A stretch of DNA of 64,000 bases from an uncultured Bacteroidales bacterium (lineage in GTDB: Bacteria; Bacteroidota; Bacteroidia; Bacteroidales; Bacteroidaceae), in contig CACZSQ010000073.1 in assembly GCA_902783885.1 (NCBI GenBank), positions 1,439 through 65,438 of the forward strand, in the 5' to 3' direction. Of the stretch, positions 2,983 to 46,702 are shown piece after piece. The notes under the pieces are model-generated. The model was not told the DNA's origin. It saw nothing but the letters and a program-made list of their open reading frames with translations, and ran no database searches. The translations under genes were made by a program, and so were the position numbers. Within the stretch, counting starts at the first letter, position 1; the number at the start of each line of letters is the position of its first letter.

Positions 2983-3070
2983 GCTGAAGATGCAGATCTT
3001 ATGGCCTGAAGATCTAGGTCTTCATCGCTTAAGACCTGCATCTTATGGCCGTAAGACCTAGGTCTTCATA
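2983..3070. repeat. Tandem array of 4 x 22-bp hairpin-forming units (gaaga-N-tctt family)
   Basis: Units are gctgaagatgcagatcttatgg, cctgaagatctaggtcttcatc, gcttaagacctgcatcttatgg and ccgtaagacctaggtcttcata. aagacctaggtctt is a perfect palindrome. The array lies 17 bp beyond the 3' end of the GH53 gene. The same family recurs at 46527-46702. Confidence 0.75.
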
Positions 3071-11008: not shown

Positions 11009-11186
11009 AGGCTGCGCGGCTTTCGAGTGAGAGAAAACAATCCACAACAATATCCAACAATTTATTGCAACAATAATCAATAATTAAATTTCTGCGCTCT
11101 CTGCAAGCAAACATTAGCACAATTCGCACAATTCGCCGACAAATACACCAACGGCTAAACCGAAAAACATAACGGTTAATTACACT

Positions 11187-11408: not shown

Positions 11409-11462
11409 TTCTCCACCACAGATTGCACGGATTACACTGATTCTTGTCCTCTTGATTTCAAA
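11409..11462 (+). repeat. cacagatt-word repeat Y, copy 1
   Basis: ttctccaccacagattgcacggattacactgattcttgtcctcttgatttcaaa. It has the same architecture as the MITE left end (ccac + 3 x 9-bp words + tgtcct.ttgat core). Confidence 0.7.
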
Positions 11463-11832: not shown

Positions 11833-11969
11833 TGAAAAGAATTGTTCTTGATTTCTCCACCACAGATTACACAGATTACACTGATTCTTGTCCTCTTGAT
11901 TTCAAAAATTCATTCTATATTACACTGATTCAAGTTTCGGATGTAAACAACTTGTTGTCTGTAAGGTAA
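11832..11969 (+). pseudogene. Probable remnant of a PIN-like toxin gene, reduced to MKRIVLD then repeat sequence
   Basis: The ATG overlaps the antitoxin stop. The first 7 codons, MKRIVLD, look like a VapC/PIN N-terminus. From codon 8 onward the sequence is repeat Y copy 2. Confidence 0.3.
11853..11906 (+). repeat. cacagatt-word repeat Y, copy 2
   Basis: ttctccaccacagattacacagattacactgattcttgtcctcttgatttcaaa. Two mismatches to copy 1. Confidence 0.7.
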
Positions 11970-14024: not shown

Positions 14025-14283
14025 CACGAATTTCACGAATTTCACGAATTAGTTAAAATACATGTCCTATTGATATGATTCAATTTATATCGAATTTCAC
14101 GAATTCTTGGCGAAAGGCTTCGCGGCTTTCGAAGGACAAGCATCGGGTAGCTCCTTGGTTAGGTAACATTACGGCTTCACTCGGAGCCCCCCCCGCGTAG
14201 CGGCTCCGCTAAAATTCGTGAAATTCGTTATAATCAGCACTATGCGCCAGCCAAGAAATTTGTGTAATTCGTGAAATTCGTGG
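14025..14283. mobile_element. MITE-like element (~259 bp) whose terminal inverted repeats are tandem cacgaatt words
   Basis: The left end ccacgaatttcacgaatt is the exact reverse complement of the right end aattcgtgaaattcgtgg (14266-14283). The acatgtcctattgata core is shared with 10895 and 15358. The element has no coding capacity. Confidence 0.7.
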
Positions 14284-15348: not shown

Positions 15349-15357
15349 CTCAAAGCA

Positions 15358-15462
15358 CCACGAATTTCACGAATTGCACGAATTACATGTCCTATTGATA
15401 TCATTCTAATAATCATAGGTATCAGCTTGCTAAGAAATTCGTGCAATTCGTGTAATTCGTGG
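15358..15462. mobile_element. Short MITE-like element (~105 bp), same family as 14025-14283
   Basis: The left end ccacgaatttcacgaattgcacgaatt is inverted at the right end aattcgtgcaattcgtgtaattcgtgg. It has the same acatgtcctattgata core and the same flanking tatagaaagaacat. It lies between the convergent fmt and xylanase genes. Confidence 0.7.
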
Positions 15463-15488
15463 TATAGAAAGAACATTCGATAGTTCAA

Positions 15489-21502
<6,014 letters not shown>

Positions 21503-22371: not shown

Positions 22372-22600
<229 letters not shown>

Positions 22601-40649: not shown

Positions 40650-43600
40650 CTAAGCGTGTTCTTCGCACCACTTACGGGCGTTGACAAATGCCTCAATCCA
40701 AGGCGTAAGCTCATCACGGCTGCGGTTGGAAGGATAGAAAGCGCATTGCCAAGGGAAGATCGCACGTTCCAGGTGAGGCATCATCGCCAGATGACGGCCG
40801 TCAGCCGAGCAGAGGCCTGCCACGCTATAATCAGAACCATTGGGATTGCCAGGATATTCGTCGTAGCTGTACTTGGCCACCACATGATATGCGCTCTCGG
40901 GTTGCGGCAAATGGAACTTGCCCTCGCCGTGAGCCACCCAAATGCCGAGTTTGCTGCCAGCCAGAGAGCACAGCATCACGCTGTTGTTCTCAGGGATGGT
41001 GACGCCGAGGAAGGCGGACTCAAACTTGTGCGAAGTGTTGTGGAGCATTGTGGCCCCCCTTACGGCCCCCGAGGGGGCTTCTATTGTTTTGCTATTAGAG
41101 GACTTTACATCCGTGTCCCCCTCGGGGGATAACAGGGGGGCCAGCTCTAGGAGCCCCAACTCCACCATCAGCTGGCAGCCGTTACAGATACCGAGCGAAA
41201 GGGTGTCTGGACGAGCATAGAAGCGGTCGAGTGCTGCCTTGGCTTTGGGATTATACAGGAAGGCACCTGCCCACCCCTTCGCTGAGCCGAGGACGTCAGA
41301 GTTCGAGAAACCGCCGCAGAAGACAATCATCTGCACCTCATCCAGCGTCTCGCGGCCAGTAATGAGGTCGGTCATCATGACATCCTTCACGTCGAAGCCT
41401 GCAAGATAAAGGCTGTAGGCCATCTCGCGCTCACCATTCGTGCCTTTCTCACGGATGATGGCAGCACGAGGAGACCCAGCCCTCTGCCCCATACGAGGGA
41501 GGGAGATGGGGGTGGGTTTTATTTTCCACACGAGTGGCTGCTGCTTATAATTCTTATAGCGGGCATCAGCGCAGCCGTTCATGCTTTGCTTCGTATCGAG
41601 TTGATAGGAAGGACGATACCAGATGTCACGCAGTTCATCTATGTCAAGGGTTTCCTCAAAACCGCCCTTGCGGATGCGCAGCGAGCGTTCCCTTGCAGGT
41701 ACACCTATATATATATAGCCTACACCAGCCTCATCCATCAGCTTCTTGAATTCATCTTCGTGCTTGGTGCTGACCTGCACAACGACGCCAGGATTCTCGG
41801 CAAAGAGAATCTTCGTGATGTCCTCGCTTGCAAAATTGTTGAGATTCACTTTCATGCCACCCTTCGTATTGGCAAAGCACATCTCCAGAAGAGTGGTGAT
41901 GAGACCGCCGGCGCTGATGTCGTGTCCCGCCAGCAGCAAACCCTTCTTCACGCATTCCTGCACGGCATCAAAGGCATCGCGGAAATACTCAGGATTTGTG
42001 CACGTGGGCACATCTGAGCCCACTTTGCCATGAGCCTGGGCATAAGCGCTACCACCGAGGCGCAACTCGTCAAACGAGAAGTCGATATGATAGAGGGCAC
42101 TTTTGGGCTCGTCAGCCAGCACTGGGCTCACCACCTTGCGGATATCGCTGACCTCGCTACCGGAGGTGACGATGACGGTTCCAGGGGCAATAACCTTCGT
42201 GCCATCGGGATATTTCTGAGTCATGGAGAGGCTGTCCTTGCCTGTCGGGACATTGATTTCCAAAGCACAGCAGAATTCGGAGAGCGCTTCAACAGCTTTA
42301 TACAAGCGGGCGTCCTCACCCTTCTGTGAGCGGCACGGCCACATCCAGTTGGCACTGAGGCTGACGCTGTCAAGGCCTTCAGCCAACGGTGCCCACACGA
42401 TATTCGTCAAGCTCTCAGCCACAGAGAGGACAGAGCCTGCTGCGGGGTCTGCAAGGCCTGCCTGCGGGGCATGGCCCAAGGCGGTAGCGATACCCTTGCG
42501 CCCCTGATAGTCAAGGGCAACGACACCGCAATCCGACAGCGGCAGTTGCAGTTCGCCCTGGCACTGCTGGCGTGCCACCTTGCCCGTCACCGAGCGATCG
42601 ACCTTGTTCGTCAGCCAATCTTTGCAGGCAACAGCTTCGAGCGAGAGAACGCTCTCTATCATAGGCCCAATGGGGCTCATGGGGCTTATAGGATATTCAA
42701 CAGGCTGGTATTTACGCTCGACGGTCTCATCGACCATCACCGTCTTAGGCGAATGGCCGAACATCTGAGCCACGTCAAGGTCGAAGGGGCGAACGCCGTC
42801 GGCCTGTTCGAATGCGAAATGGGCATCGCCCGTGGTCTCACCGACGACATAAAGCGGAGCACGTTCGCGCTCAGCAATCTTGCGCACATGGTCGAGATGC
42901 TCTTCCTGAATGAGCAGTCCCATGCGCTCCTGGCTCTCGTTGGCAATAATCTCTTTGCTGGAGAGCGTAGGGTCGCCGATAGGGAGCTTTGACATATCAA
43001 TGAGTCCGCCGCACTCCTCCACCAGCTCGCTGAGGCAGTTGACGTGGCCTGCCGAACCGTGGTCGTGAATGCTGACGATGGGATTCACATCCTCTTCGCA
43101 CAAAGAGCGAACAAGGTTGTAGGCGCGCTTCTGCATCTCGGGGTTGGCTCGCTGGACAGCATTCAGCTCGATGCCGCTGCTGTAGCGACCTGTATCCACG
43201 CTGGACACAGAGCCTCCACCCAAGCCGATGCGGTAGTTGTCACCGCCAACGACGACAATCTTATTGCCCTTCTCAGGTGTGCCCTTCAAACAGTCGCGTT
43301 TGGTGCCATACCCCACGCCGCCTGCCAGCATGATGACCTTGTCGTAGCCATACTGCTCACCATTCTCTTCATGTTCGAAGGTGAGCACAGAGCCTGTTAT
43401 CAGCGGCTGACCGAACTTATTGCCGAAGTCGCTGGCTCCGTTGGAAGCCTTGATGAGAATCTGTTCAGGGGTCTGATAAAGCCATTTGCGAGGAGCCATC
43501 CCCTGCCCATCAAGGGCTAGGGGCTTCGGATAGGAAGTCATGTACACCGCCGTTCCGGCAATAGGCCATGAACCGACGCCACCGCCCATGCGGTCACGGA

Positions 43601-44417
43601 TTTCTCCGCCCGTGCCTGTGGAGGCTCCGTTGAAAGGTTCCACCGTCGTAGGGAAGTTGTGTGTCTCGGCCTTAATGCTGATGACACTCTCAATCTCCTT
43701 CACGCGGAACCAGTCGCTGGTGGAGTGGTCGGCAGGAGCGAACTGCTCCACGACAGGCCCCTCAGCAAAAGCCACATTATCTTTATAAGCAGAGATGATC
43801 TTGTGGGGGTTCTCCTGCGTCGTGCGCTTAATCATCTGGAAAAGGCTGCTGGGCATCTCCTTGCCGTCGATGATGAACGTGCCGCCGAAGATCTTGTGGC
43901 GGCAGTGCTCGCTGTTGATCTGAGCGAAGCCAAACACCTCGCTGTCCGTGAGCTTGCGTCCGAGCTGCCCCTCCACCTTGTGCAGGTATTCTATTTCCTC
44001 GGGCGAGAGCGCCAAGCCTTCCTGCTCGTTGTACTCCTCCAGATTCTCAATCGTCAGAATAGGAGCCGGCTCAATATCCACCGTGAAAATATTCTGGTCG
44101 AGCCCGTCGTACAGGCGCTGAAGCATAGGATCGTAATCCTCTCCCCCACGGGGAGAGTTAGAGAGGGGCCAATATTCCTCTATTCTCTGGATACCCTGAA
44201 TGGCCATGTTCTGGGTGATTTCCACAGCGTTGGTGCTCCAAGGGGTTATCATCTCGCGACGAGGTCCTACGAACCGCCCGTCGATTGCCTGGACTTCCAA
44301 GAACGTGGCATCGCCGTAGAGCCAGCAAAGTTTCTGAATATCCTCAGCGGTGAGCTGACGGCCTGCCTGAGTGGCGATAATGGACTGCTGCGGAGTCCTG
44401 AAAAAGAATATAGCCAT
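40650..44417 (-). CDS. purL: Phosphoribosylformylglycinamidine synthase, single-chain large form
   Basis: 1255 aa. [41 protein letters not shown] and the C-terminal amidotransferase GICNGCQLM ... HNTSHKFES ... AHGEG. I moved the start to [11 protein letters not shown] (ATG at 44417), downstream of the promoter motif. Confidence 0.9.
   Translation of the reverse strand: [1255 protein letters not shown]
41052..41142. mobile_element. ~90-bp palindromic (MITE/RPE-like) element in frame within the purL amidotransferase domain
   Basis: The left end ggcccccct tac ggcccccgagggggc and the right end gtccccctcgggggat aac aggggggcc are inverted copies. The segment encodes about [30 protein letters not shown], between [17 protein letters not shown] and [12 protein letters not shown]. 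Confidence 0.6.
42658..42693. repeat. 4 units of the 9-bp CNTATRRGG word, in frame inside purL
   Basis: atcataggc ccaatgggg ctcatgggg cttatagga. It encodes [12 protein letters not shown], a different reading frame of the word from the helicase copy. Confidence 0.75.
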
Positions 44418-44458
44418 TATATATGAGATATTTATGTGTCTGGTGGTTATTTTGTGCG

Positions 44459-44466
44459 CAAAGATA
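44459..44466 (-). promoter_or_regulatory. -7 promoter motif (TAtcTTTG on minus strand)
   Basis: Plus-strand caaagata, 42 nt upstream of the purL ATG at 44417. Confidence 0.5.
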
Positions 44467-44562
44467 CGGTTAAAAAGTGAGAAAAACACACGGACACGGC
44501 GGTTTTTGGGCGGAAAAAGGAAAAAAAACGATGAATTGTTTGGAGTGAAACTCATTTTAACA

Positions 44563-46526: not shown

Positions 46527-46702
46527 GTGAAGGATGAATCCTTATGGCGAGAAGATTTAAACCTTATCGGCAGAAGGATTAAACCTTATGGGCAGAGGAT
46601 TTATATCTTACGGTATGAAGATGCGGGTCTTACGGCTTGAAGATATAGGTCTTCAGGCCTGAAGACCTGCATCTTCTGCCATGAAGACCTGCACCTTAGA
46701 AC
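46527..46702. repeat. Tandem array of 8 x ~22-bp hairpin-forming units (gaaga-N-tctt family)
   Basis: gtgaaggatgaatccttatggc, gagaagatttaaaccttatcggc, agaaggattaaaccttatgggc, agaggatttatatcttacggt, atgaagatgcgggtcttacggc, ttgaagatataggtcttcaggc, ctgaagacctgcatcttctgcc, atgaagacctgcaccttagaac. The last unit supplies the stop codon of 46696..47037. Confidence 0.8.

Follow-up and report, generated by a model that had tools for sequence, protein, structure and literature searches.

How does a tandem array of a 9-bp word come to be read in frame within an essential enzyme of purine biosynthesis, and what keeps it there? The question is raised by the purL gene of an uncultured Bacteroidales bacterium, which lies on a stretch of 64,000 nucleotides (the window; positions 1,439 to 65,438 of contig CACZSQ010000073.1) and encodes phosphoribosylformylglycinamidine (FGAM) synthase. 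A preliminary description of the window had proposed that the DNA word, rather than the peptide encoded by it, is what is being propagated. From the comparisons below, it would seem probable that the purL segment is a tolerated passenger, one copy of a frame-safe, minisatellite-like family of tandem repeats dispersed through the Bacteroidales.

The purL array is one of three copies of the same word in the window

The nonamer array lies on the minus strand at 42661–42696. The plus strand of 42658–42696 reads ATC ATAGGCCCA ATGGGGCTC ATGGGGCTT ATAGGATAT, with three full units at 42661–42687 and one degenerate unit (ATAGGATAT) at 42688–42696, following the pattern ATRRGSCNN. On the minus strand the array is translated as YPISPMSPIGPM. 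The minus strand of 42658–42693, TAT CCT ATA AGC CCC ATG AGC CCC ATT GGG CCT ATG, encodes residues Y575-P-I-S-P-M-S-P-I-G-P-M586 of the 1255-residue protein, in a reading phase (frame C1, N NGC CYY AT.) that gives SPM, SPI and GPM. The earlier count of about four nonamers at 42658–42693 is therefore borne out, as three full units and a degenerate one.

Three units of ATRRGSCNN followed by ATRRG are found at only three places in the 64 kb (18004–18116, 20486–20535 and 42661–42692), all in one orientation, and there were no matches in 100 dinucleotide-preserving shuffles of the window. A 16-mer, ATGGGGCTTATRGGAW, has exactly three copies in the window, one at the same end of each array and none elsewhere. 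Since the shuffles gave no match and the terminal 16-mer is common to all three, we take the purL segment to be real, not a product of chance, and the same word as the other two arrays. The objection that its unit boundaries are a chance match with no other genomic copies fails in view of the two further arrays, the shuffles and the presence of the family in other genomes. Tandem Repeats Finder reports the other two arrays, one within a helicase gene and one intergenic, and omits the purL array because its score falls under the threshold.

The array occupies a hypervariable linker of PurL

purL runs from 40650 to 44417 on the minus strand, and Pfam recognises in its product FGAR-AT_N, linker, AIRS_C, PurM_N-like and GATase_5 domains. 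The protein is 99% identical to a 1255-residue phosphoribosylformylglycinamidine synthase in several metagenome assemblies. Its start is likely to be the ATG at 44417; the mechanical open reading frame (ORF) extends to 44555, adding 46 codons (44418–44555, MAIFFFRTPQ..) upstream of this. Two database entries of 1301 residues (P0245 and P0247) carry the longer start, which is probably an annotation artefact.

The structural position of the array is based on Pfam boundaries and on sequence alignment to solved PurL structures. It falls between AIRS_C (residues 383–535) and the FGAR-AT PurM_N-like domain (residues 599–752), and in the alignment to Salmonella PurL (1t3t and related entries) it meets the residues just before 'ITIADAVKRVLHLPTVAEK'. 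On these two grounds the array forms the linker between the two halves of the FGAM-synthetase domain, as had been guessed in the preliminary description. An AlphaFold2 model of residues 180–985, made with an alignment of 39 sequences, was poor (mean pLDDT 48) and was not used.

The best 120 PurL homologues are 77–99% identical to the window protein and 1217–1374 residues long, and the few named members among them are labelled as Bacteroidaceae, Bacteroidales or Paraprevotella metagenome-assembled genomes. Aligned, they reveal six or more places that are hypervariable through in-frame insertion (near window residues 83, 298, 577, 917, 973 and 1087), of which the nonamer array occupies the one at residue 577. 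In most of the 120 the linker at this site is 11 residues long, for example STDRVALSRDI, ITDSKTLWQDI or SSQLSSLNAQL, and in many others there are long unrelated inserts; the site is both hypervariable and permissive. The nonamer peptide is found only in the window protein, in P0001, P0005, P0007 and P0008 and in members of their clusters. Conservation of the peptide across PurL orthologues was not seen, more than 100 homologues carrying unrelated sequence at the site, and nonamer-type tripeptide repeats, when sought in other PurL and helicase homologues, were found in this purL clade only. No homologue has the peptide without the DNA repeat; outside the clade the linker is an unrelated stretch of 11 residues.

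Many of the PurL inserts (P0001–P0120) resemble translated inverted repeats, such as SPRGGE...PPTGGAGRG, IHNSQFTI...NYELSIMNS and PSTLNPQPSTLN. The pattern suggests that several repeat families have heavily colonised this essential gene. The window gene has a second in-frame insert, a 93-bp palindrome at 41051–41143 (minus strand) with 27-nt arms that are 81% complementary, which is translated in the glutaminase domain as ..LELAPLLSPEGDTDVKSSNSKTIEAPSGAVRGAT.. and is missing from many close homologues, where the protein reads ..LLGLKGNEKM.. instead. The region 41045–41150 folds as a hairpin (−28.4 kcal/mol, z −5.35). From its sequence the insert looks like a hairpin element of the Rickettsia palindromic element (RPE) or MITE (miniature inverted-repeat transposable element) kind that has been written into the protein.

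History of the array within its clade

In codon alignments two other lineages, L120 (YPMSPMSPMSPIGPMI) and L121 (YPISPMSPMSPIGPMI), carry this array at an identical position. Each has a protein about 90% identical to that of the window and one extra unit, so that purL arrays have 4 or 5 units. A third lineage, L122 (P0002), has unrelated codons at the site. In a neighbour-joining tree built from the 1163 columns left after removal of the site and its flanks, the array-bearing sequences together with one further sequence, P0253, form a single clade (bootstrap 193/200), which argues for a single gain of the array.

P0253 itself nests within the array clade. It is 98% identical to the array-bearing P0008 outside the array site, where it has ..TYDNVLTERTALNQDITAV.. 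in place of the array. Of the 42 differences between the two, 18 fall in one block of 50 columns round the linker, in which P0253 reads ..ERTYDNVLTERTALNQDITAV.. The simplest reading of this alignment is that a short replacement tract removed the array. That a near-identical allele carries an ordinary linker suggests that the array is not required. There was no length polymorphism at the strain level among 10 full-length variants of the window's own 90% cluster, all of which read EYPISPMSPIGPMI.

The 13 alignable codons of the array show 2–3 synonymous and 0–1 non-synonymous differences between pairs of lineages, the single change being I to M. In the flanking blocks of 60 codons, 13–33 codons differ synonymously and 2–3 non-synonymously. 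In both the window and L120 three purL units still fit G[GC]C[CT][CT]AT, against one in L121. As judged from these codon comparisons, the array has evolved since its acquisition as constrained coding sequence, with the DNA word eroding in the relatives.

The helicase and intergenic arrays

A gene for an SF1 (DNA2/NAM7-like) helicase (18110–21502, minus strand; AAA_11/AAA_12 and a weak PD-(D/E)XK match in Pfam) both hosts an internal array, at 20480–20535 on the minus strand and containing a 45-bp in-frame insert, and terminates in the intergenic array. The latter (18004–18120, minus strand, about 13 units) fills the spacer between the helicase and a GDSL esterase/GH10/SASA gene (15489–17978, minus strand; Pfam), the start codon of which is 25 nt downstream on the minus strand. 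In the orientation of the genes the word becomes NNGCCYYAT. The helicase reads it as NNG CCY YAT (frame C0) and purL one base later, in agreement with the earlier observation that the two copies are translated in different phases. The third phase (C2), GCC CYA TAA, includes stop codons, and it is in this frame that the helicase ends, with CCA TAA (the TAA at 18110–18112), inside the 13-unit array.

The helicase orthologue L123, which is 86% identical, reads GAT TCC TAT AAG CCC|CCC CAG, and the window is exactly 45 bp, or five units, longer at the bar. The 'empty' site, TAT AAG CCC, is already one unit, so a target-site duplication could not be told from the repeat. A closer homologue (L125, 96% identical) has a diverged array of the same length as that of the window, and more distant helicase homologues have no proline-rich segment at the site. 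The intergenic locus holds about 13 units in the window. L123 and L124 each have three there, corresponding to the first and the last two of the window array, and L125 and L126 lack the array altogether. The C-terminus of the helicase varies in step, reading ..LLNSIP* with the array and ..LLKTVQWNPKPDNL* or ..LLDHIQRLR* without. On this comparison of sequences the helicase and intergenic arrays are much more dynamic than the purL array.

None of the three arrays folds better as DNA than shuffled sequence does (z −1.92, +0.07 and −0.24), Rfam has no match anywhere in the window, and GC skew across the window gives no indication of the direction of replication. The intergenic array holds a canonical G-quadruplex motif (G3+N1–7 ×4) on the G-rich strand at 18007–18036 (plus strand). 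The idea that a G-quadruplex underlies the arrays was rejected, the motif being found in the intergenic array only and not in the purL and helicase copies.

The nonamer family in other genomes

Species-representative genomes, one per species, were scanned for four tandem ATRRGGCNN units, a search that ascertains the family with the word itself. It returned at least 119 loci, and among the matches listed at least 65 were from Bacteroidales, comprising Prevotella/Prevotellaceae, Muribaculaceae, Tidjanibacter and rumen Bacteroidaceae or Bacteroidales genomes. Several genomes have multiple loci among the matches listed, for example five in MGBC139270 and four in RUG837.

The Bacteroidales arrays are heterogeneous. 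Positions A1, T2, G5, G6 and C7 of the unit are almost invariant, but these five are fixed by the search pattern; A and G alternate at positions 3 and 4, and positions 8 and 9 vary (T in 64% at 8, A in 55% at 9). At their ends the arrays fade into degenerate ATRGG[A/C] units. That particular positions of the word are conserved hints at a sequence-specific process or at selection on DNA or RNA.

Matches in actinobacteria, proteobacteria and cyanobacteria are mostly homogeneous perfect repeats, and were set aside as background minisatellites that happen to fit the pattern. The same four-unit scan of viral contigs gave 28 matches, nearly all of them perfect homogeneous 9-mers, some plausibly coding repeats, and only two of the 28 resemble the heterogeneous Bacteroidales type. 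Because the viral matches are so nearly all homogeneous, we see in them no sign of phages carrying the family. Arrays with nearly the same unit (ATGGGGCTT, ATAGGGCTC or ATAGGGCTT) occur in the PVC group, in Lentisphaeria/Victivallales (L008, L047, L048 and L094) and in Luteolibacter of the Verrucomicrobia (L107). These are more homogeneous, and coincidence, shared function and horizontal transfer are all possible.

Arrays lie mainly between genes and are read in several frames

We sampled 84 arrays, from the 65 Bacteroidales loci and the window, and counted an array as inside an ORF where the ORF extends at least 60 codons on both sides of it. On this basis 68 of the 84 (about 80%) are outside long ORFs, a fraction that is approximate as the gene calls in the 65 loci are crude ORF calls; of the 16 'coding' calls one at least is false, being that of the intergenic array in the window itself. 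Greedy ORF calls put 16 of 73 arrays inside genes.

Five in-gene arrays were checked with Pfam. Their hosts are a LeuRS (L039, RANEANEANRTNEAN..), a GH2 enzyme (L056, EANRANRANRAN), an RluA-type pseudouridine synthase (L106, 13 units of GAN/EAN), an SF1 helicase (L101, KAHEAHEAHGAD) and an Omp85 protein (L019), and the arrays are read in frames G2 and C1. The GH2 enzyme also carries another in-frame repeat insert, TRPTRPTRPTPSPSLTGRGG, as does the helicase, with PQPLPVGRGGESPRTANNDVLANYSPPYREGQGEGLS. Taken with the window copies, the in-gene arrays are on both strands and in at least three frames, and would encode unrelated peptides (SPI/SPM, xPY and [RGKE]A[NYH]). That they are translated in their host genes is inferred from the intact ORFs. 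Over the 73 arrays, frame C1 is open in 100%, G0 and G2 in 99% each, C2 in 45%, C0 in 41% and G1 in 1%.

According to the crude gene calls the non-coding arrays lie in 24 tandem, 17 convergent and five divergent contexts, and so are over-represented at the 3′ ends of genes (17 convergent against five divergent). In the tandem contexts the distance from the upstream stop codon to the start of the array is mostly about 20 nt or less. This distribution fits with the toleration of insertions near gene 3′ ends, including those that supply their own stop codon, and the arrays may have a role at the end of the gene.

Other repeats in the window

The window contains further repeats of other kinds. Short MITE-like elements lie at 14025–14282 and 15352–15468, and also at 11113–11136, 11417–11442 and 11861–11886; their terminal inverted repeats are three tandem 9-mers (CACGAATTT ×3 ... 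AAATTCGTG ×3), a different word from the purL nonamer. At 2997–3066 and 46529–46697 there are tandem arrays of 22-bp units (for example TCTTATGGCCTGAAGACCTAGG), reminiscent of the 23-nt BrickBuilt minisatellite (PMC4596501). Between ORFs at 22372–22515 the heptamer AGTTGAG is repeated about 21 times, followed at 22527–22567 by about 3.7 copies of an 11-mer (ATAGAGATAGC).

Discussion

What propagates, the DNA word or the peptide? For the origin of the segment and its spread between loci the answer of the preliminary description, the DNA word, stands: there are non-coding arrays, those in genes use both strands and at least three frames, and the peptide is absent from PurL outside the clade. For persistence in purL it must be qualified, since there the constraint is at the level of the peptide. 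The DNA word thus explains where the segment came from and peptide constraint why it has persisted, the peptide being kept while the word erodes in the relatives.

It is possible, though we think it unlikely, that a dedicated sequence-specific process makes or maintains the arrays, through a DNA- or RNA-binding protein or the templated addition of units, and that the purL copy is a by-product. This overlaps in part with the explanation that we prefer and concerns how arrays are seeded and maintained. The conservation of particular positions within units speaks for it, as do the polar arrays with degenerate ATRGGA ends, the clustering of non-coding arrays at gene 3′ ends, the many arrays that start within about 20 nt of a stop codon and the span of the family over several Bacteroidales families. 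However, we found no associated gene, flank or hairpin, and at the helicase site a target-site duplication could not be told from the repeat. Selection against disruptive insertions could also produce the 3′-end bias, and in relatives the DNA of the purL copy is decaying. In its strongest form, which we hold just as tentatively, the nonamer is the footprint of an active process, with an ATRGGGCNN-binding or -laying protein or templated addition at breaks or 3′ ends, and the family is a mobile frame-safe satellite. Were that so, it would systematically remodel protein linkers, C-termini and intergenic regions, rather than being the passive debris of slippage, and a dedicated mechanism or binding protein would make it a new genome-organising element of a dominant gut phylum.

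It is less likely still that the peptide is what matters, a proline-rich PxxPxx spacer being selected in the PurL linker (and in the helicase) with the similarity in DNA as a by-product. Within the clade the peptide is kept while synonymous sites change, and it is invariant in the 10 variants of the window's cluster. Yet the same DNA word gives a different peptide in the helicase (xPY) from that in purL (SPI/SPM), while there are non-coding arrays of the word too, and from the opposite strand it yields [RGKE]A[NYH] repeats. Beyond the clade the linkers of PurL homologues are unrelated, an allele that is 98% identical lacks the array, and the third codon positions of the window copy follow the DNA word (AGC CCC ATG).

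That each array grew independently, by slippage from a chance seed, with the likeness between loci being coincidental or due to a general mutational bias, we regard as very unlikely. The one unit in the 'empty' helicase site of L123 fits growth in situ, though it would fit contraction equally. Against independent origins, the same invariant positions recur in hundreds of units at many loci and in many genera (A1, T2, G5, G6 and C7 being fixed by the search), the terminal 16-mer is common to the three arrays of the window, the shuffles gave no matches, and the unrelated 9-bp minisatellites of other phyla and viral contigs are homogeneous, unlike these. An assembly or sequencing artefact can be dismissed, the same array being present in independent assemblies from different samples and sources.

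We therefore favour the reading of the purL segment as a tolerated copy of a dispersed repeat, in which it is most likely a neutral or nearly neutral passenger. Three observations sit awkwardly with this. The pattern of conserved and free positions in the unit, and its recurrence across several Bacteroidales families, are not explained by slippage alone. The 13–16 codons of the purL array replace about 10 codons of the outgroups and so are not a clean insertion, which calls for more than one event or for a conversion-like event. The conservation of the peptide within the clade also indicates some constraint, and a role for a proline-rich spacer is possible.

With these points in mind, the history of a tolerated dispersed repeat would run as follows. 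The family has the unit ATRRGGCNN on one strand and NNGCCYYAT on the other, and the comparisons show its arrays to lie mainly between genes, adjoining gene 3′ ends, and to differ between relatives by whole 9-bp units. These units would probably be gained and lost through replication slippage or unequal recombination. With a unit of three codons, an array never puts a gene out of frame. Stops are all but absent from three of the six frames, and two more are open in about 40–45% of arrays. An array that has come to lie in a permissive loop should therefore be read straight through, giving a tripeptide repeat whose sequence is set by strand and phase. In purL one array was acquired in the ancestor of a small clade, displacing about 10 codons of the hypervariable linker, and one branch later came to differ by one unit. 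The replacement of codons suggests, as far as the alignment can tell, that the event was conversion-like or had several steps. Purifying selection has since acted on the segment as on ordinary coding sequence, with the word decaying at synonymous sites in relatives. The peptide would have no specific function and be a tolerated proline-rich spacer, its toleration presumably owing to the exposed, hypervariable site in the linker. As to how new sites are seeded, we would guess at slippage starting from a proto-unit present by chance, or else at template switching or illegitimate recombination that involves an array already in place. The single unit in the empty helicase site is compatible with growth in situ or with contraction.

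We found no description of this nonamer family in the literature, where the nearest precedents are RPEs and BrickBuilt. RPEs are repeat DNA found in frame in unrelated and often essential genes (PMC10969869). The nonamer family is like them in also lying both between genes and in frame within unrelated genes, in having inserts that are apparently translated and are tolerated, and in spreading at the level of DNA. Its in-frame insertions are at permissive sites in PurL, LeuRS, the GH2 enzyme, the RluA-like protein, the helicase and Omp85. RPEs are palindromic, hairpin-forming single copies of about 100–150 bp with a conserved peptide; the nonamer, in contrast, forms a non-palindromic tandem array of 9-bp units without a significant fold, which is translated in more than two frames and grows or shrinks one or more whole units at a time. 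Being non-palindromic and unfolded (z −1.9 to +0.1), the arrays are not elements of the RPE or MITE type.

The short tandemly repeated repetitive (STRR) sequences of cyanobacteria, reportedly described by Mazel and colleagues in 1990, are heptamers. The likeness lies in one short word in tandem, head to tail, at many unrelated loci of a lineage (for the nonamer, several per genome), mostly in non-coding DNA. We know of no way in which STRR sequences spread, nor of any case of them as in-frame protein inserts. Their units of 7 nt, which would break reading frames, and their cyanobacterial hosts set them apart from a 9-nt unit in Bacteroidales, and the nonamer is not an STRR sequence in the strict sense of a heptanucleotide in a cyanobacterium.

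BrickBuilt, a minisatellite with a 23-nt unit, sits inside a MITE in Porphyromonas gingivalis (PMC4596501). Both it and the nonamer family are dispersed minisatellites of the Bacteroidales with conserved and variable unit positions and a varying number of repeats, in BrickBuilt between strains (PMC4596501). BrickBuilt, however, has a leader and tail with terminal inverted repeats and predicted long stem-loops, and is always intergenic and stop-rich (PMC4596501). The nonamer has no such flanks and enters genes.

In contingency loci, genes are turned on and off by units that shift the frame or act in promoters, and the unit is particular to each locus. The nonamer arrays resemble these and other variable-number tandem repeats in being head to tail and in having a copy number that varies by whole units, as it does between relatives at the purL, intergenic and helicase loci. 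However, the same unit is found at unrelated loci, and since steps of 9 bp cannot switch the reading frame the arrays are not contingency loci; in every length variant seen, the purL and helicase reading frames stay open. Proline-rich linkers such as the XP repeats of the TonB type are conserved features of their protein families. The PurL array likewise places a proline at each third position of a linker between domains, but it is restricted to a single small clade of PurL and can be replaced. From these comparisons the combination appears to be one of known kinds, RPE-like in its in-frame repeats and STRR-like in its dispersal, in a family that is undescribed in the literature that we found.

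For annotation, such arrays create spurious ORF extensions and supply stop codons, and checks of gene length by homology in metagenome-assembled genomes are misled by the inserts. The presence, absence and copy number of an array are possible markers of lineage. The nonamer family and the extreme in-frame plasticity of PurL in this clade are of more interest than the purL copy itself. Because the unit is neutral with respect to frame and most of its frames are free of stops, arrays can enter essential enzymes at permissive loops and persist there, which would provide a simple route from repeat DNA to protein sequence in free-living bacteria of the gut and rumen.

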